This document shows, in pieces, positions 3,918 through 61,203 of a stretch of DNA of 64,000 nucleotides (positions are counted from its first letter, which is position 1; each line of letters starts with the position of its first letter). The stretch is taken from contig JAJYLR010000001.1 of the NCBI GenBank assembly GCA_021787535.1, forward strand, positions 211,648 to 275,647. The letters are read 5' to 3'. This stretch comes from a bacterium (lineage in GTDB: Bacteria > Patescibacteriota > CPR2 > UBA1875 > JAJYID01). The translations under genes were made by a program, and so were the position numbers. The notes beneath the pieces were generated by a model. It did not search any database and was not told the origin of the DNA. It saw only the letters and a list, made by a program, of their open reading frames with translations.

Positions 3918-5594
3918 ATGAACGATGAACTGAAAAAATCTATTTATGAAGCGGTAAAAGCTCAGCAAAAAAGTTGCGGGTGCAGTTTTGATATTCCTGA
4001 AATCGAAATCGAAAATCCGAAAGATCCGAAGTTTGGGGATTTATCGACTAATATTGCGATGAAGATAGGCAAGATGCAGGGAAAGAATCCGATGGCGATT
4101 GCCGAGAATTTGGTGAAAGGACTGGATTCCCGCCTTCGCGGGAATGACAAAAAAGGGGGCCAGAATGATAAATTGGGCGGAATGATCAAGAAAGTGGAAG
4201 CGGTGAAGCCGGGATTTATCAATTTTTATTTCAGCCTTGATTATTATCAGGGAAAAGTTAGGGAAATTTTATCAGCTGGTCGAAAATATGCCGATTTAAG
4301 TATTGGAAAAGGGCAGAAGGTGCAGGTTGAGTTTATTTCGGCAAATCCAACCGGACCGCTGACGCTGGCAAACGGGCGAGGAGGTTTTAGCGGTGATGTC
4401 CTTGCTAATGTTTTCAAAAAAGCCGGGTTTAAAACTGAACGGGAATATTATGTCAATGACGGCGGAAATCAGGTAAAGGTTCTCGGGGATTCTATTTTAG
4501 CCGCAGCAAAACTAGTTCCTAACAAAGAAGATAATTACCGTGGCGATTACATTGAGAAATGGGCAAAAGAACATTATGGTGAATGTGCAGAGCTAAAAGA
4601 TAATTCATTTGAACTTGGCAAGATTGCCGCAAAAGATATTTTAGAAACCTTAATTCAGCCGGTTATTGGGAAAATGGGAATCGAGTTTGACAGCTGGTTT
4701 AGTGAAAAAGAGATGACCGGACGGGGTGAGGTAGATGAGACAATTCAGTTTTTAAAAGATAATCATCTGACAAAGTCTGAAGACGATGCTCTTTGGATGA
4801 AGACCACTGAGTTTGGTGACGACAAAAATCGGGTTTTGGTAAAAAAAGACTGTGAAAAGACATATTTTGCAAATGATATTGCCTATCACTACGACAAATT
4901 CGCGAAAAGGAAATTCGACAAAGTGATTGACCTCTGGGGTGCCGACCATCACGGTTATGTCGGTCGGATGCAGGCGGCTGTTGAAGCGATGGGCTTTGCC
5001 GGAAAGCTGGATATAGTGATTTTCCAAATGGTTCGACTCATAAAGGATGGTAAGGAATACAAGATGTCCAAGCGAAAGGGTACTTATGTGACCATAGATG
5101 AATTATTTGATCTCATTGGCATCAAAGATGCCGCCGATGTCGTCCGTTTCTTCTTCATTTCTAAGGGATTTGACACGCATATGGACTTTGATCTTGATCT
5201 TGCCAAAGACACTTCCGAGAAAAACCCGGTTTATTATGTGAAATATGCATCAGCTAGAGTGAATGGTATTTTGCGCAATGCAAAAGAAGATTTCTCTGCA
5301 GTAAATCTGAAATTAATTAAAGAACCGGCGGAACTTGACCTAATTAAAAAACTGTCAGAGTTGCCGGAGCTGGTAGAGCAAGTCGCCACCGATAAAAAAT
5401 ATCCGGTGCACAAGTTTACCTATTACATTACGGAAGTTGCGGAGAAATTCCACAGGTTCTATCACGACTGCAGGGTGATTTCGGACGACGCGGAACTAAC
5501 CAAAGCCAGATTGGCGCTTGTTGCCGCCACAAAGAATGTCCTGGAAATAACGGGAGAAGACATTCTCGGTATTGACATGCCGGAGAGGATGTAA
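3918..5594 (+). CDS. argS: Arginine--tRNA ligase
   Basis: 558 aa. HHGYVGRMQAAVEAMG and KMSKRKGTYVTIDEL (KMSKS-type) motifs. GFINFYF N-terminal motif. Confidence 0.9.
   Translation: MNDELKKSIYEAVKAQQKSCGCSFDIPEIEIENPKDPKFGDLSTNIAMKIGKMQGKNPMAIAENLVKGLDSRLRGNDKKGGQNDKLGGMIKKVEAVKPGFINFYFSLDYYQGKVREILSAGRKYADLSIGKGQKVQVEFISANPTGPLTLANGRGGFSGDVLANVFKKAGFKTEREYYVNDGGNQVKVLGDSILAAAKLVPNKEDNYRGDYIEKWAKEHYGECAELKDNSFELGKIAAKDILETLIQPVIGKMGIEFDSWFSEKEMTGRGEVDETIQFLKDNHLTKSEDDALWMKTTEFGDDKNRVLVKKDCEKTYFANDIAYHYDKFAKRKFDKVIDLWGADHHGYVGRMQAAVEAMGFAGKLDIVIFQMVRLIKDGKEYKMSKRKGTYVTIDELFDLIGIKDAADVVRFFFISKGFDTHMDFDLDLAKDTSEKNPVYYVKYASARVNGILRNAKEDFSAVNLKLIKEPAELDLIKKLSELPELVEQVATDKKYPVHKFTYYITEVAEKFHRFYHDCRVISDDAELTKARLALVAATKNVLEITGEDILGIDMPERM
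4124..4155. repeat. Hairpin repeat inserted in frame within argS (GGATTCC-cgccttcgcgg-GAATGACAAA)
   Basis: Same motif as intergenic copies. Encodes DSRLRGNDKKG in the ArgS frame. Degenerate gccagaatgat and ggcggaatgat follow at about 4158-4190. Confidence 0.6.
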
Positions 5595-10008: not shown

Positions 10009-13000
10009 ATGGAAGATTTGCTGAAGGGTTTGAATAAAGAGCAGAAGGAAGCCGTTACTCACGACAAGGGACCTCTCTTAATCGTGGCCGGAGCCGGGAC
10101 AGGGAAAACGACTGTTATCACTCGGCGGATCGCCTGGTTAATCGCGCAAAAGCTGGCGTTACCTTCTGAGATTCTAGCCCTCACTTTTACCGATAAAGCA
10201 GCCGGTGAGATGGAGGAGCGGGTCGACGAACTTGTGCCTTACGGATTCGTCGACACCTGGATATCCACTTTTCACGCTTTCGGCGATCGTATTTTGCGCG
10301 ATCATGCTCTTGATCTCGGACTGACGACCGATTTTCGGGTTTTGTCCAAGCCGGAGCAAGTGATTTTCATGCAAGACAATTTGGAAGCCTTTGATCTAAA
10401 ATATTTCTCGCCGCTTGGCAATCCGACCAAGCACATCGATGCGCTTCTCGGCCACTTCTCAAAGCTGAAAGATGAAATAATTTCACCGGCCGAGTATTTA
10501 GGGTTTGCCGATAAGAAATTAAAGTCGGCTCAGGATTCTGACGAAAAACTCGAAGCGGAGAAGACGTTAGAAATTGCCAGAGCTTACGAAAGGTATCAGG
10601 AGCTGATGGCGGAAGCCGGCAATCTCGACTTCGGCGACCAGATAAATATACTCATTCATTTATTGAAAACCCAGCCGGCGATCTTGAAAAAATACCAGAA
10701 GCAGTGCAAATACATCTTGGTCGATGAATTTCAGGACACAAACTACGCCCAGAACGAACTACTGAAGTTATTAGCCGGGGGAAAGGATTCTGGTCAAGCC
10801 AAAATGACCCACGCACCGCTTCAGGGTGCGGGGCAGGCACAGGGTGGCCACGGAAATATCACAGTGGTTGGTGATGATGACCAGTCGATTTACCGTTTCC
10901 GCGGCGCCGCCATTTCAAACATTTTGCAGTTCCCGAAAGATTACCCGAGATGCAAGCAAATAGTTCTAACGGAAAACTACCGTTCGACACAGGCGATTTT
11001 GGACAGCGCCTATAAATTAATAAAACACAACAATCCTGATCGTCTGGAAGTGAAGAATAATATTGTGAAGAAGCTGACTTCCAGGTTTGACGCCGACTCG
11101 GTTGAACCGATCCATTTGCATTCAGACACCCTGACTGCTGAGACGGACCGGGTGGCGAAAATGATCAAAGAATATTTCGACGAAGGCAGATATTCGTTCA
11201 AGGACTTCGCTATTCTCTCGCGGTCGCGCCGAAACGCGGAAGATTTCATTCACGCTCTAAACCATTACGGCATTCCTTATAAATTCTCAGGTTCTTCCGG
11301 CTTATATTCTAGAGCCGAAATCCGCTTGTTAATAAATTTCGCCAAGGTTTTAATTTCATCCGGTGACAATCTGGCCTTCTATCATTTAATTACATCAGAT
11401 GTTTATGGAATGAATGTGTCGGAGGCGGTGAAACTAAATGAAATCTCACAGAAAAACAAACGAAGTCTGAATGATGTGGCGAACGCAATTAACTTTTCAA
11501 AATCAAAATCTGACTGGATTCCCGCCTCCGCGGGAATGACAGACGAGGCAAGGGCAATTTTAGATAGGGCATTGAAGGATTTGAAAAATTTCCGCGAAGA
11601 ATCAAAGAAGCTGACCGCCGGACAGGTGATTTACATGTTTTTGAAAGAAACGGGGTATTTGTCAAAACTAGTGACGGAGTCCGAGAAGAGCGCGGAGGCG
11701 CAAGTGGCCATCCAGAATATCGCCAAGTTTTTTGAAAGAATCGGTGATTTTGAAAAAGTCTCGGAGGATAAAAGTATTGTGAACTTCGTCCGTCACTTGA
11801 AAGCTCTGATGGATGCCGGTGATGATCCGGCAATGGCCGAGGTCGATCCGGATCTTGAGGCGGTCAGTGTGCTTACGGTTCACTCGGCTAAAGGATTAGA
11901 GTTTCCGGTAGTGTTTGTGGTCTCGCTTGTCTCGGACAGCTTCCCGACTCGCAAACGCGCCGAACAGTTGCCGATTCCGGAGGAATTAATTAAAGAGTCT
12001 TTACCGGAGGGCGACTGGCACCTGCAAGAAGAGCGGCGGCTCTTCTACGTCGGCATGACCAGAGCCAAAGAAATTCTGTACCTAACGAGCGCCGAGGATT
12101 ATGGCGGAAAGAGGGCGCGCAAGGTTTCCCAGTTCGTTCTGGAGGCGATTGATAAGCCGGCTTCGGCGAAAGAAAAGGTGAAGCTTGATAAAGTTGAGGT
12201 GATCAAGAGGTTCAAAAAGCGCGATGAGATTGTAATTCCCAAGAAATTCTACGATGGCAAGGGACTCTTAACCCTAAATCCGCATCAGATAGATGACTAT
12301 CTGTCATGTCCGAAGAAGTTTGAATATATCCATATTCTGCGTGTGCCGATCATGACCCACCACTCGGTGGTCTATGGTTCGGCAATACATAAGGCGATTG
12401 AAGCGTATTTTGTAGCGAAAAAAGCCGGCAAAAAGGTCAGTTTGGATGATTTAATAGAAGTCTTTAGCGCAAATTGGCGAAGCGAGGGATTTATTACCCG
12501 CGAACACGAGGACAAAAGGTTTAATCAGGGGAAGAAATCGCTTGGTGAATTTTTCGCCAGAGAAGAAGGCAAGAAGCCGCCGGAGGAAGTGGAAGCGAAG
12601 TTTGAAATACCGCTAAAGGATCTCAATGTGAAAATTCGCGGCCGATTTGATGCAGTATATGTCAAATGTAAAACGGAAAATGTTAAATGTGAACAAACCG
12701 AAATCCGCGACTTTAAAACTTCAGAGGTTGAGAATCAAGAGCAAGCAGACAAAAAAGCCAAGACGAATAGGCAATTATCAGTTTACGCGCTGGCCAAGCA
12801 AACCGAAACAGGTATCATCCCGGAAGTGTCGCTTTATTTCGTCGATTCGGGGTTGGTTGGGAAGGTTCAAAAGAAAGAAAAAGATCTAGACAAGGTTCGC
12901 GGGGAAATTGAGAAAGTAGTCGAAGGGATTAAAAAGGAAAACTTCAAAGCTTCTCCCGGATTTGGTGAGTGTTCGCGCTGCGCCTACCGAGAGATTTGTC

Positions 13001-31645: not shown

Positions 31646-31670
31646 TTAGAAATTCAAATTATAGATTCCC

Positions 31671-31703
31671 GTCTTCGCGGGAATGACAAAAGGTAATTAT
31701 CAA
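31671..31703. repeat. Hairpin repeat (ATAGATTCC-cgtcttcgcgg-GAATGACAAA)
   Basis: Intergenic copy of the family. Confidence 0.65.
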
Positions 31704-32366: not shown

Positions 32367-32437
32367 ATAGATTCCCGCCTGCGCGGGAATGACAAAGGAT
32401 GGCGGGAATGACCCACGCACCGTTAGATGTGCGGGGC
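32367..32437. repeat. Composite repeat: ATAGATTCC-cgcctgcgcgg-GAATGACAAAGG followed by ggcgggaatgac + ccacgcaccg-ttagat-gtgcgggg
   Basis: Two family members fused. The second half is shared with 10805-10833. Confidence 0.6.
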
Positions 32438-38602: not shown

Positions 38603-38633
38603 TTTGTCATTCCCGCGCAGGCGGGAATCCAGC
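38603..38633. repeat. Hairpin repeat, minus orientation (TGTCATTCC-cgcgcaggcgg-GAATCCAG)
   Basis: Reverse complement of the GGATTCC...GAATGACA family. Confidence 0.65.
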
Positions 38634-41382: not shown

Positions 41383-41543
41383 TCTATAAATAACTTTGAT
41401 TTCCTTTTGTTTTTCTATGTTTTGTGCTAAAATAATTTTGCATTAGGGAGGAGGGATTAAATATTCGACTCCCTTTTTGAGTTCCTGTTTAATCCCATCT
41501 TAGTAAAAATATTTCTGTAGCAATTCAACCTAAAGGAGTTTCG

Positions 41544-42929
41544 ATGACGGATGCAAGCAAGTTCACCTGCGTTAGTCCGATAGATTATCGGTATGACTCT
41601 CCGGAGTTGGGCGAGTACTTAAGTGAAGAGGCCTTCACTGAGTATAAGCTTCGTGCCGAGATAGCTCTTGTTGAGGCACTGACGGCTCGGGAAATCTGTC
41701 CATTAGAGGCAAGGAACGAGATTGTTGACGCTAAATGGCAGGTTACAGTCAAAGAGGTATATGAGGAAGAGGATCGCAATCACCACGATATCCGAGCGCT
41801 TGTGAACTGTATTCAACGGCGAGTGAGTGATCGCGCTAAGCCATATGTTCACATGTCGGCTACGTCTTTCGATATCTCAGATACGGCCAATGCGGCGAGA
41901 TACAAGGATGTAATGTTTGATGTTTTTCTTCCTAAGCTGAATCAGCTTGAAAAGGCGTTGATCGAACTGAGTTTGCGTGAGGCAAACACTGCTCAGATTG
42001 GCAGAACTCATGGCCAGCACGCTGTCCCGATCACCTTCGGCTTTGCCATTGCTCTCTATGTTGAACGAATCGGCGGCTGTATCGTGGAAATCAGGAAGGC
42101 AGCCGAACAGATAGTCGGTAAGTTTTCGGGTGCTGTCGGCGCTTACAATGCGTCCTCGCTTTTCTTTGACGATCCGAAGGCATTCGAAGCAGAGGTTCTT
42201 CAAGGGATGGGCCTTTTCCCGGCGGGGCATTCGACCCAGATTGTTCCTCCAGAGTCCAGAACTCGTCTCTTTAATGAGATCTGCATATTGGCGTCAGTTT
42301 TGGCTAATTTGGCCGACGACATGCGCCATCTACAGAGGTCGGAGATCGGCGAAGTAGGTGAGCCGTTCGAGAAGGATCAGGTTGGGTCATCGACAATGCC
42401 CCAAAAACAAAATCCTATCAACTTCGAGAACGTGAAGTCAATGTGGAAGATCGTTTACGGACTCCAGCAAACAATGCTACTCGATCAGATCAGCGAGCAT
42501 CAGCGCGATCTCACCAACTCGGCATCCGGACGGACCTACGTCGAGATTATTGGTTATACCTATTCTATGGTAAAGAGGATGATTCGGGTGATGAGTAGGA
42601 TAACTGTCAACAAGCAAAACATGGAGTGCAACCTTGCCAGTCAAGGTGAAGCGATCCTTTCTGAGCCGCTCTATATCATCCTTGCATCACTCGGTCACCC
42701 TGATGCCCACGAGAAAGTCAGGATGTTGAACCAGCGCGCTTACGCCGGTGAGGATAATTTCGTCAAGCTGATTCATTCGGACAAGGAGCTTGCACCCTAT
42801 ATTGCTCGGATGAGCGATGAGCAGAGAGTGATCCTTTCCGATCCGCACAAGTACACGGGTATATCGGCTGAAGCCGCTAAATCGACAGCAACCAGATGGA
42901 AAAAGAAGCTGAGGAGAATTGAACGGTAA
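41544..42929 (+). CDS. purB: Adenylosuccinate lyase-like (fumarase/aspartase class II family) enzyme
   Basis: Family signature GSSTMPQKQNPI. SPIDYRY N-terminus resembles PurB SPLDGRY. AAAGGAG RBS. Confidence 0.65.
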   Translation: MTDASKFTCVSPIDYRYDSPELGEYLSEEAFTEYKLRAEIALVEALTAREICPLEARNEIVDAKWQVTVKEVYEEEDRNHHDIRALVNCIQRRVSDRAKPYVHMSATSFDISDTANAARYKDVMFDVFLPKLNQLEKALIELSLREANTAQIGRTHGQHAVPITFGFAIALYVERIGGCIVEIRKAAEQIVGKFSGAVGAYNASSLFFDDPKAFEAEVLQGMGLFPAGHSTQIVPPESRTRLFNEICILASVLANLADDMRHLQRSEIGEVGEPFEKDQVGSSTMPQKQNPINFENVKSMWKIVYGLQQTMLLDQISEHQRDLTNSASGRTYVEIIGYTYSMVKRMIRVMSRITVNKQNMECNLASQGEAILSEPLYIILASLGHPDAHEKVRMLNQRAYAGEDNFVKLIHSDKELAPYIARMSDEQRVILSDPHKYTGISAEAAKSTATRWKKKLRRIER

Positions 42930-42957
42930 TCCATACTCCTTAATAAGCTGTTTTACG

Positions 42958-42986
42958 GAAGCCGCTTCGTGAGAGGCGGCTTTTTC
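42958..42986 (+). terminator. Rho-independent terminator
   Basis: gccgcttc-gtga-gaggcggc followed by TTTTTC. Confidence 0.7.
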
Positions 42987-43201
42987 ATTCAATTTAATAA
43001 AGATTTTCCTTGATTTTTCTTTGTTTTTGGCTTTAGTTTGTGCTAAAATAAATATAGTTGCGGAAGCAGCAAATTTTCAAAAAATCTCTCATTGACTCGG
43101 GGTGGTTGTAACTCATAAAAATACCTTGCTATAAGCAAAAAGAGGGATGTCCAAGGTTAGGATATTAGTTTAAGTTATGTTAATTTGAAAATTTGATTTT
43201 A

Positions 43202-45292
<2,091 letters not shown>

Positions 45293-45293
45293 A

Positions 45294-45695
45294 ATGAATG
45301 AAACGGGTGATAAATTACATTCAAATGAAGTTGATAAAAAGGAAGCTTTAGCGATAGCAAAAACATTGCTTGTAACAACAGAAGGAAAAACAGTTCGGCT
45401 AATTGATGCGTGTGAGTACGTACTTCAATTGATAGAACAGAAAGATAAGCCCACTAAGAATGATCTTGAAGTTTTACATAAATTAGCAGAATTTATAGCA
45501 AATATTGTTGATAGAGGTAATAAAGTTGAATATCAAGATTTTAGGGAATATGCGAAGCTCGTAATGGATATAAAAAAAGGTGCAGGTATAGAAGTTGACC
45601 CAGACGAAGTTTATAAATTTACAGAAGTTAAAAAATTAGATGAATTATATGATAATTCTCCTAATACTGAACCAGTAATTAGGAATGAGGAATAA
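45294..45695 (+). CDS. Small acidic, AT-rich hypothetical protein inserted between gyrB and gyrA
   Basis: ATG 1 nt after the gyrB stop. Its 3' end supplies the RBS for gyrA. Strongly AT-biased codons relative to the flanking genes. Translation [17 protein letters not shown]... Confidence 0.5.
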
Positions 45696-45696
45696 A

Positions 45697-48492
45697 ATGG
45701 CGGACGAAGAAAGACAAGAAAATTTGAATAACATAGGCAAAATCGAACCTCGTGACATTAACGACGAGATGCAGGAGAGCTATCTTGACTATGCCATGAG
45801 CGTGATTGTGGCTCGGGCTCTGCCTGACGTGCGAGACGGGTTAAAGCCGGTACATCGCCGAATTTTGTATGCCATGGACAAGCTCGGGGTTCGCTCGACT
45901 GCCAGGTATAAGAAGTCGGCAAACATTGTCGGTGAAGTTTTGGGTAAATATCATCCTCATGGCGATACGGCTGTTTATGACAGTATGGTTAGAATGGCGC
46001 AGGAGTGGAGCACGAGATATTTGCTTGTTGACGGCCAGGGAAATTTCGGTTCCATGGATGGTGACTCTGCCGCCGCTTACCGATATACGGAAGCAAAGAT
46101 GACAAAGGTTTCAGAGGAGCTTTTGGCTGACATTGATAAAGATACGGTTGACTTTGTGCCCAACTACGACGGGTCGCAGAAAGAGCCGCAAGTGCTGCCG
46201 GCAAAGGTGCCAAATCTTCTTTTGAACGGTCAGATCGGCATTGCTGTCGGCATGGCTACCGCTATTCCGCCGCACAACTTGGCAGAGCTTGTCGGGGCAA
46301 CGGCCGAACTCATTGATAATCCGGAAGCTACGGTTGAGGATTTATTAAGGCATGTCAAAGGTCCTGACTTTCCGACAGGCGGCATTATTTATAACGCAGA
46401 AGAGATCAAAAATGCCTACGCTACCGGACGGGGCAAAATAGTCGTCAGAGCTGTGGCCGAAATTGAAGAAAAGAAAAAAGGCGGCTTTCGAATCGTGGTC
46501 ACGGAAGTTCCGTATATGGTAAATAAGGCCACATTAATTGAAAAAATCGCTTCACTTGTCAAAGAAAAGAAAATTATCGGTATCAGCGATCTTCGCGATG
46601 AGTCGGATCGTAAAGGTGTCCGGGTTGTTGTGGAACTCAAAAAAGACGCTCATCCAAATAAAATCTTGAACCAACTCTTCAAAATGACGCAGATGCAGTC
46701 GGCCTTTCATGTCAACATGATCGCGCTGATCGACGGTATCCAGCCGAGGGTTCTGACGCTCAAAAATGTATTGGAAGAGTTTATAAAACACAGATTTGAA
46801 GTTGTCACTCGCCGGACTGAGTTTGAGCTGGCCAAAGCAAAAGCACGCGCTCATATCCTTGAAGGACTTTTGATTGCCCTTAAAAATATCGATGCTGTTA
46901 TCGAAACGATTAAAAAATCCAAAGATAAAGAAGTCGCCAAAGTGAATTTGATGAAGAGGTTCAAGCTGACGGAAATTCAAGCCCAGGCAATTCTGGATAT
47001 GCGGCTGCAGACACTGGCCGGGCTCGAGCGCCAGAAAATCCAGGACGAGTACGACGAACTTCAAAAATTAATCGCAAAACTTGAAGACCTACTGGCCCAT
47101 CCGAAAAAGATTTACGCTGTCATTAAGGACGAGCTCGCTGAAATGAAGGAAAAATACGGTGATGAGAGAAGGACTAAAGTGATTGAAGCCGGTATCGGCG
47201 AGTTTTCAGACAAAGACCTGATACCAAACGATGAGATGATTGTGACTATGACCAAGGGCAACTATATCAAAAGAATTCCGGTCACTACTTATCGGGTGCA
47301 AAACCGAGGCGGTAAAGGCGTAGTTGGCATGAAAACCAAAGAGGAAGACATCGTAACCCACATGATTTATACGCAGAATCACGATAATATGCTTTTCTTT
47401 ACGAACAAAGGCCGAGTGCTTCAGACGCTTGTTTATGAACTTCCGGAAGCTTCAAGGATTGCCAAAGGCCAGCCGGTAGTTAATGTTCTCCAGCTTGCTC
47501 CCGAGGAAGTGGTGACGGCGATTATTAATGATCCGGAGAAGCAAACCGGCAAATACTTAATGATGGCGACGAAAAAGGGGACTATCAAAAAGACCCCTAT
47601 GGAAAACTTTGTCAATATCAGAAAGAGCGGAATCATAGCCATAAATCTCGATAAAAATGACGAACTTAAGTGGGTCGAAATGACTGACGGTGATAGCGAC
47701 ATTATTATGGCTACCAAAAACTCACTGGCTATCAGATTTAACGAGAAAGATGTGCGTCCGATGGGCCGGGCTGCCCGTGGTGTCCGCGGCATTAAGCTAA
47801 AAGGCGGTGATGAAGTGGTCGGTATGGATAAGATCGTACCGGGTGGAGAGCTTCTGGTTGTGATGGAAAATGGCTACGGAAAGCGGACCAAGCTTGAGCA
47901 ATTTACACCGCACAGGCGAGGCGGTATCGGTATCAAAGCCGGAGTGGTGACTAAGAAAACCGGCTCTACTGTTGATGTTCGAGTCATTTCAAATGACCAG
48001 GGCGATCTTGTCATTGTATCTTCTCATGGTGTGGTTATAAGGACTCCGCTTGCCAATATTTCAAAGATCGGCAGAGCTACCCAAGGGGTGAGAATTATGC
48101 GCATCGATGATGGAGACAAGGTAGCGTCTGTAGCATCTATTGTGTCCAAAGAAGACGAGGATAATAACGGACAGCAGCAGATCCCTCTGGATAATGCTCC
48201 ACAAGACAAACCAAAGAGAACTCTGACACAAAAGAAAATTGCCAAAAACAATTCTCAAAAATCTGCCAAAACTGTTGCTAAAAAATCGGCAACCAAAAAA
48301 TCAGCCACACAAAAAGCGATGTTCAAGAACTCTGCCAAACCAAAACCGGCAGTTAAAAAACCTGCAGCCAAGAAACAAAGTTCGGCGCCAAAAGGCCAGT
48401 CAGTTGCTTTCAAAAAGACTGCTGTGAAACCTGCAAAAAAGTCCAAAAAAGCACCGGCAGGTTTTAAGAGAATGCAGGTCAGAAAGAAATAG
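45697..48492 (+). CDS. gyrA: DNA gyrase subunit A with a C-terminal Lys/Ala-rich basic tail
   Basis: [28 protein letters not shown]-terminal beta-pinwheel repeats. Approximately 110 aa KK/KA tail at the C-terminus. An alternative in-frame ATG lies at 45685. Confidence 0.92.
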
Positions 48493-61177: not shown

Positions 61178-61203
61178 GGATTCCCGCCTTCGCGGGAATG
61201 ACA
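61178..61203. repeat. Hairpin repeat (GGATTCC-cgccttcgcgg-GAATGACAAA)
   Basis: Identical core to the in-frame copy at 4124. Confidence 0.65.

Follow-up and report, generated by a model that had tools for sequence, protein, structure and literature searches.

The 133-codon open reading frame (ORF) between gyrB and gyrA in the 64-kb window, i.e., the whole stretch of DNA analysed here, from a Patescibacteria (CPR) bacterium, is probably a passenger: an accessory gene that occupies a replaceable slot in the gyrBA operon and is unrelated to gyrase function. On sequence comparison, the slot is a property of a genus-to-family-level clade of Patescibacteria, at whose gyrB/gyrA junction unrelated small genes, a remnant or no gene at all are found. 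The features of the locus in the window are the following.

43238-45292, + strand: gyrB, 684 aa, the first gene of the operon, with the Pfam domains HATPase_c, DNA_gyraseB, Toprim and DNA_gyraseB_C
45290-45292, + strand: TAG stop codon of gyrB, the left border of the slot
45294-45695, + strand: the window ORF, 133 codons, with its ATG at 45294 and its TAA at 45693-45695
45628-45656, + strand: weak sigma-70-like promoter match, TTAAAA-17-GATAAT, 9/12, from a consensus scan only
45687-45691, + strand: GAGGA, Shine-Dalgarno-like for gyrA, read from the sequence, 5 nt 5' of the gyrA ATG
45697-48492, + strand: gyrA, 931 aa, bordering the slot on the right, with Pfam DNA_topoisoIV and six DNA_gyraseA_C blades

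The exact fit of the ORF between the two gyrase genes, described in the earlier note, is confirmed by the coordinates: a single base (45293) separates it from gyrB in the arrangement TAGaATG, and a single base (45696) separates it from gyrA in the arrangement TAAaATG. The accompanying claim that its last codons form the ribosome-binding site of gyrA agrees with the Shine-Dalgarno-like GAGGA motif, which is part of AGGAATGAGGA within the final codons. An alternative in-frame ATG at 45270 would give an ORF overlapping gyrB; the start at 45294 follows the same start pattern as the slot genes of relatives. Read-through from gyrB into the ORF is ruled out, since the gyrB frame meets a TGA two codons past its TAG.

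As had also been noted before, the ORF is more AT-rich than either gyrase gene. Its GC content is 0.308 (GC1 0.51, GC2 0.24, GC3 0.17) versus 0.48 for gyrB (GC3 0.52), 0.46 for gyrA (GC3 0.49) and 0.425 for the whole window, so that a GC3 of 17% stands against one of about 50% in the flanking genes. Of the 402-nt segments of the window, 0.016% are equally AT-rich, and the GC3 of the ORF is the lowest among the 62 gene-like ORFs of the window, the runner-up having 0.30. The proposed dominance of tta, aat, gat and ata codons stands in part: the most frequent codons are GAA, AAA, GAT, AAT and GTT, so GAT and AAT are indeed among the commonest, but TTA and ATA rank below. The GC3 of the gyrase genes themselves is 0.49-0.52 in the window versus 0.36-0.44 in all clade relatives (L003, L100 and L202-L212), and a GC rise in this genome therefore explains part of the contrast.

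In DNA so AT-rich a stop codon is expected approximately every 11 codons, and the probability of finding 132 open codons at the composition of the ORF is accordingly about 2e-6; among 200,000 shuffles none remained open. The five other frames of the region contain 3-29 stops, and G accounts for 40% of the bases at codon position 1. A search for structured RNA gave no Rfam match in the region, and its folding relative to shuffled sequences is unremarkable (z = -0.62). On the basis of the open-frame probability, the order GC1 > GC2 > GC3 and the G-rich first position, we take the ORF to be a real protein-coding sequence.

The predicted product contains 29 D+E versus 20 K+R residues, which corresponds to a net charge of -9 and a pI of 4.83. 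About 8% of the ORFs in the window have a pI equal to or below this value, with much greater acidity in two of them, at -0.12 and -0.17 charge per residue. The description of the product as strongly acidic was thus overstated; at a pI of 4.8, around the 8th percentile of the window, it is mildly acidic. There is no transmembrane segment, cofactor motif or catalytic motif, and the sequence has a single cysteine (C40). The AlphaFold2 single-sequence model is all helical and of low confidence (mean pLDDT 61), with helices at residues 15-28, 34-48, 55-73 and 80-96 and a poorly defined acidic C-terminal tail; a Foldseek comparison of this low-confidence model with PDB and BFVD returned no match with E < 0.9. 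The product is accordingly predicted to be a small soluble helical bundle with an acidic tail, and, for a small helical protein lacking enzyme signatures, the most likely mode of action is the binding of another macromolecule rather than catalysis.

Homologs of the ORF were sought widely. When 5.8 billion clustered proteins were searched by word index, the sole match was the ORF itself, from its own 636-kb contig, and an exhaustive phmmer (HMMER) search of 1.84 billion representatives gave nothing beyond two marginal matches, both of which were rejected. The first, P0002, is a 2217-aa beta-rich surface repeat protein, a chance match whose score is inflated by a recurring CEY..KPT.NDLEV motif; the second, P0003, a prosaposin from a eukaryote, contains 12 saposin repeats and is likewise repeat-inflated, and a saposin domain has six cysteines where the ORF has one. 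Sequence searches against Pfam, PHROGs, PADLOC, NCBIfam and PDB gave sub-threshold noise at most, including a PADLOC match to Cas8b (E = 0.0012, 15.8 bits) that is regarded as such. No match was found in the phage, plasmid and IMG/VR collections, and none of the 212 fetched loci contains a homolog. The possibility that the ORF is a diverged copy of another slot cargo was also rejected, protein and DNA similarity both being absent. As far as these searches reach, the window ORF is an orphan gene confined to this genome.

Comparison with relatives shows gyrB directly abutting gyrA (e.g., TAAaaATG or TAATG) to be the ancestral and most widespread state. A broad set of 80 genomes was recovered with GyrA, and in about 70 of them gyrB lies immediately 5' of gyrA, with no gene between them. 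In genomes whose GyrA is at most 66% identical to that of the window, the two genes adjoin directly, e.g., at TAATG, TAGatATG or TAAttATG. For the clade of the window itself, all members that could be obtained were gathered, 15 other loci in total, by scanning genomes, by a pattern scan of metagenomes, by searching with the GyrB protein and by looking up contigs; where gyrB is present, its product is 81-92% identical to GyrB of the window (14 clade members). The content of their slots is as follows.

L202 (nearest relative, GyrB 92% identical): SDR (short-chain dehydrogenase), starting 1 nt past the gyrB stop; the contig ends inside the SDR
L203, L100 and L211: isochorismatase-family (isochorismatase-like) hydrolase, 204-205 aa
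L204: multi-transmembrane protein, 172 aa
L205: GNAT acetyltransferase followed by AdoMet (S-adenosylmethionine) decarboxylase
L003: GNAT, with no second gene
L002: AdoMet decarboxylase; the contig is cut upstream
L210 and L212: AlaX-like protein, 207 aa
L207 and L209: 156-nt remnant, with a 5' leader common to the isochorismatase slots
L206 and L208: empty, TAAaaATG

At least six unrelated cargo types (SDR, isochorismatase-like, GNAT, AdoMet decarboxylase, AlaX-like and membrane protein) therefore occur at this junction in congeners. Counted as arrangements, the 15 other clade loci display six, in addition to the remnant and the empty state, besides the orphan of the window. The DNA homology of the window to L003 and L100 stops at the gyrB stop codon, and that to L003, L002 and L100 restarts at 45688-45694, only a few bases away from the gyrA ATG. 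The earlier view of the ORF as a foreign insertion is supported by these breaks at both borders, by its place at the compositional extreme of the window and by the lack of a counterpart in every relative examined; in none of these relatives is the ORF conserved in place with native-like composition. The slot is distinct in composition in every genome, with a GC content of 0.26-0.38 versus 0.42-0.48 in the flanks, and the window ORF represents the largest contrast.

In a neighbour-joining GyrB tree (without support values) the states of the slot are interleaved across the branches, and sisters carry unlike slots, as seen for the window and its SDR-bearing neighbour, for L003 (GNAT) and L100 (isochorismatase), and for L212 (AlaX) and L208 (empty). 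The gyrB DNA identity among clade members is 72-85%, except for the pair L207/L209 (98.5%), which has the same slot state; with members this diverged, the turnover of the slot takes place between species, not strains. Because the isochorismatase-like gene is present on three separate branches and its leader is kept in the remnants, it may have occupied the slot first and have been replaced or lost on several occasions.

In genomes with an empty slot, gyrA starts 2 nt past the gyrB stop and lacks a good Shine-Dalgarno sequence. Of the six arrangements, four (the window ORF, the SDR, the membrane protein and the AlaX-like gene) have the start codon of the cargo 1-2 nt past the gyrB stop, at the position held by the gyrA ATG where the slot is empty; for the GNAT and isochorismatase cargos this distance is 8-105 nt. 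Between the end of the cargo and the gyrA ATG there are 0-3 nt in all cases. No terminator-like site was found on the + strand from the start of gyrB to the end of gyrA, and the sole promoter-like match in the ORF is the weak one listed above, located about 40 nt 5' of gyrA and of uncertain function.

A course of events compatible with the passenger reading can be proposed. The ORF would have been imported from a much more AT-rich source, or would be a young gene, and would have displaced an earlier occupant of the slot, possibly an isochorismatase-like gene. Having neither promoter nor terminator of its own, it would be carried on one gyrB-ORF-gyrA transcript and translated by termination-reinitiation coupling after gyrB at TAGaATG, the coupling being passed on to gyrA through the stop of the ORF (TAAaATG) and the embedded GAGGA. 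Insertions would be tolerated only when the coupling of gyrA is kept, and the survival of such insertions alone would account for the exact fit of the ORF in the slot. Against a pure passenger, the operon position might still mean a functional link for this particular cargo.

Traces of the route of insertion are preserved at two loci. In L003 (5981-6006), the end of the GNAT gene is an 18-nt in-register copy of the gyrB 3' end, identical at 16/18 positions (AAGAATTTGGAcgTATAA; P ~0.007). In L205 (7076-7103), a copy of the whole junction of approximately 27 nt (aagaatttggatgt-taaaaatggca), with a 1-nt deletion, lies between the GNAT gene and the AdoMet decarboxylase gene, whose apparent start is the copied gyrA-type ATGGCA. 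Consequently, these insertions, at least, occurred around the junction and duplicated it. The window ORF shows neither an att-like nor a target-site duplication at its flanks (P = 0.66), and repeats of note are absent; the two borders have just AATG in common, which may as well result from selection for coupling. Neither an integrase nor a transposase is present among the neighbouring genes in the window and the clade loci. Recent exchange by recombination in the flanks is likewise not apparent: the nearest neighbours of the last 300 nt of gyrB are those of the rest of the gene, irrespective of cargo type, so the gyrB 3' ends give no sign of recent cassette exchange.

A second variable slot is located upstream of gyrB, between this gene and that of a DUF8128 ATPase, with the following content.

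41383-43237, window: the second slot, containing the gene on the next line
41544-42929, + strand, window: adenylosuccinate-lyase-like gene, with Pfam Lyase_1 and ASL_C
L202 and L204: methyltransferase
L205: RVT_1 reverse transcriptase
L100, L206, L208 and L212: two coiled-coil ORFs
L003, L203, L207, L209, L210 and L211: nothing

Because this site is variable too, the observations point to a general plasticity of gene boundaries in the clade and not to a system aimed at gyrase. The possibility that a dedicated cassette mechanism targets the gyrB/gyrA junction, duplicates junction sequence and installs promoterless coupled genes, with the window ORF as one cassette, has to be considered in this light and appears quite unlikely. 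The junction copies at the end of the GNAT gene and at the GNAT/decarboxylase border are what such a mechanism would leave, and identical cargo types do occur on separate branches of the GyrB tree; however, no junction duplication surrounds the window ORF or most other cargos, the neighbouring genes provide no integrase or transposase, the AATG repeats at the borders are also accounted for by selection for coupling, and the adjacent intergenic site is just as variable. This alternative and those that follow are not all mutually exclusive, either among themselves or with the passenger reading. A role in gyrase regulation, for instance as a species-specific gyrase binder encoded by such a cassette, is similarly improbable. 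A small acidic protein binding GyrA or GyrB, as a DNA mimic or in the manner of Gip, Igy or YacG, and tuning or protecting gyrase, would profit from stoichiometric co-expression, and the position and translational coupling of the ORF would indeed yield roughly equimolar synthesis. Its product would be a small soluble protein of mild acidity that ends in an acidic tail, and the known gyrase binders are diverse, often small and lineage-specific, and in some cases devoid of detectable homologs (PMC10886550). On the other hand, the profile and structure searches revealed no family or fold similarity to any known gyrase modulator, the acidity is unremarkable for this window, and the ORF is not conserved. 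The argument from position is undercut by the same site in congeners, where at least six unrelated cargo types are held: a slot containing enzymes, a membrane protein or nothing says little about function. The suggestion in the earlier note of a gyrase-interacting regulator, inhibitor or antitoxin thus remains unsupported; it is weakened by these results, not refuted.

Two further explanations concern the product itself. Many immunity and antitoxin proteins resemble small, mildly acidic orphan four-helix cores, and the ORF could encode an orphan binder of this type, or a factor directed against phages or competitors, in either case with no relation to gyrase, for which an essential operon would offer constitutive expression and a position that is hard to lose. 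The predicted four-helix core of about 85 residues, the mild acidity, the orphan status and the AT-rich foreign composition are consistent with such a role, which is nevertheless unlikely: no cognate toxin gene is adjacent, PADLOC yields no more than the sub-threshold Cas8b noise, and fold matches are absent for a model that is itself of low confidence. Finally, the ORF might have no function at all, as the decaying remnant of an acquired gene or as an open spacer that merely keeps gyrA coupled. The lack of homologs, and hence of any sign of selection, and the low-confidence fold would agree with this, and remnant spacers do occur in the slots of L207 and L209. The intact 133-codon frame at 31% GC (P ~2e-6), the strong codon-position asymmetry, the clean start and stop at the borders and the helices predicted along most of the length nonetheless make a non-functional sequence very improbable.

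Several other features of the gyrase region deserve a description of their own. Other CPR lineages, Berkelbacteria among them, whose GyrB is ~60-65% identical to that of the window, have a small basic ORF of 58-87 aa conserved in the gyrB-gyrA interval (L115, L188, L125, L198, L112, L131, L103, L094 and L095). It has the motif YLETxKEHKxWYxIxEMGKQRGKPR...KHSLRKEK (alignment A1), and a profile search yielded at least 159 protein clusters, all annotated as hypothetical and without a Pfam domain. It was looked for in the window and was not found there. Being conserved in position, unlike the window ORF, it is the better candidate for an accessory protein of the gyrase operon. On the metagenome contig L130 (58-600), the gyrB part consists of the last 20 codons, 95% identical to those of the window; next to it come a short tandem repeat of agttataa units and then, in place of gyrA, an RNase H-like ORF. 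In the gyrase subunits of the window, the C-terminus of GyrA (about 48190-48489) is a lysine-, alanine- and proline-rich, histone-H1-like tail of ~100 residues, the whole GyrA having a pI of 9.6; L003 has such a tail as well. GyrB contains a glutamate-rich insertion before its C-terminal domain (about 44900-45060, residues about 555-610), so that the tail and the insertion place opposite charges on the two subunits. A 23-nt palindromic element, GATTCCCGC-NNN-CGCGGGAATGA, is present in six copies in the window versus 0.01 expected.

4125-4147, 11517-11539, 31664-31686, 32370-32392 and 61179-61201, + strand: palindromic element
38607-38629, - strand: palindromic element

In L100 (4901-4933) the element is found directly 5' of the gyrB start, and at the same place in the window (about 43205-43227) there is a hairpin with compensatory changes (gattccggatctagtccggaatga). 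A REP-like repeat and a regulatory hairpin are both conceivable identities of the element.

With the ORF regarded as a passenger in a replaceable slot, it merely adds to the taxonomically restricted genes, and its position is no basis for assigning a role in gyrase function. The slot is of modestly broader significance: at a single, exact junction of an essential, tightly coupled operon, small unrelated genes have been inserted and replaced repeatedly, in most arrangements with a fit that preserves the coupling to gyrA. The site thus constitutes a natural experiment on how, in reduced CPR genomes, accessory genes hitch-hike on the expression of housekeeping genes. In such genomes, caution is warranted with guilt-by-association annotation from operon position. 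If it were true that the product of the ORF binds gyrase, an uncultured lineage would have yielded a modulator of a new type.

The protein inhibitors of gyrase that have been reviewed comprise ParE, CcdB, TsbT, microcin B17, Gip, Igy, FicT, Qnr/MfpA, YacG, MurI and GyrI (PMC10886550). The product of the window ORF resembles them in being small, mildly negative, as proposed for Igy, and lineage-restricted, like Gip and Igy (PMC10886550); it is ~2.5 times longer than the Gip and Igy phage peptides. The pentapeptide-repeat mimics Qnr and MfpA (PF00805) form a right-handed beta-helix, whereas the ORF has no Pfam match at E <= 1 and an all-helical prediction. In contrast to YacG (PF03884), a zinc finger of ~60-65 aa with four cysteines, it has one cysteine in 133 residues and no Pfam or NCBIfam match. 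It differs from the alpha/beta protein GyrI/SbmC (PF06445) in lacking a family match and in its low-confidence, all-helical model, and from CcdB (PF01845) and ParE-RelE (PF05016), which are accompanied by an antitoxin gene, in lacking a family match and in having gyrB and gyrA as its only neighbours. A text search of the review gave no mention of a modulator encoded beside, or in an operon with, the gyrase genes (PMC10886550). In the literature, the phrase 'between gyrB and gyrA' had a sole match, to an unrelated 4.7-kb gap in Caldalkalibacillus. As for DNA mimicry, the proteins of this kind have a very high surface density of negative charge and typically a pI of about 3.5-4.5; the product of the ORF has a pI of 4.83 and a charge of -9 over 133 residues, and its model is too weak for an assessment of surface charge.

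Among mobile arrangements, integron cassettes are similar in that small, promoterless, tightly packed ORFs of miscellaneous function are expressed from an upstream promoter, with differing cassettes per site. The 1-nt spacers of the window ORF, in contrast, leave no room for attC, there is no significant inverted repeat at its 3' end, and no integrase occurs within ~10 kb upstream and 4 kb downstream; its identity as an integron cassette was rejected on these three grounds. The ORFans of CPR/Patescibacteria share with it the absence of homologs, the short length, the AT-richness and the lack of a predicted function, but the address of the window ORF is unusually well defined, and the relatives show a gain in a single lineage.

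The closest parallel is provided by replacement-type flexible genomic islets and by horizontal-transfer hot spots between core genes, a concept of comparative genomics. As in these, conserved core flanks enclose unrelated, AT-rich cargo of distinct composition at an identical site, and some relatives are empty. Exchange by homologous recombination in the flanks, which also characterizes such islets, was not observed here, in an analysis that tests recent exchange only. The gyrBA slot differs from them in lying inside an essential, translationally coupled two-gene operon, in holding just one or two small genes, in that its cargo mostly fits within 0-3 nt at both borders, and in the lack of mobility genes, a tRNA or an att site. 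Taken together, the window ORF is an ORFan in a gene-replacement hot spot; slots of this kind are already known, and it is the setting in an essential, coupled operon that is unusual.
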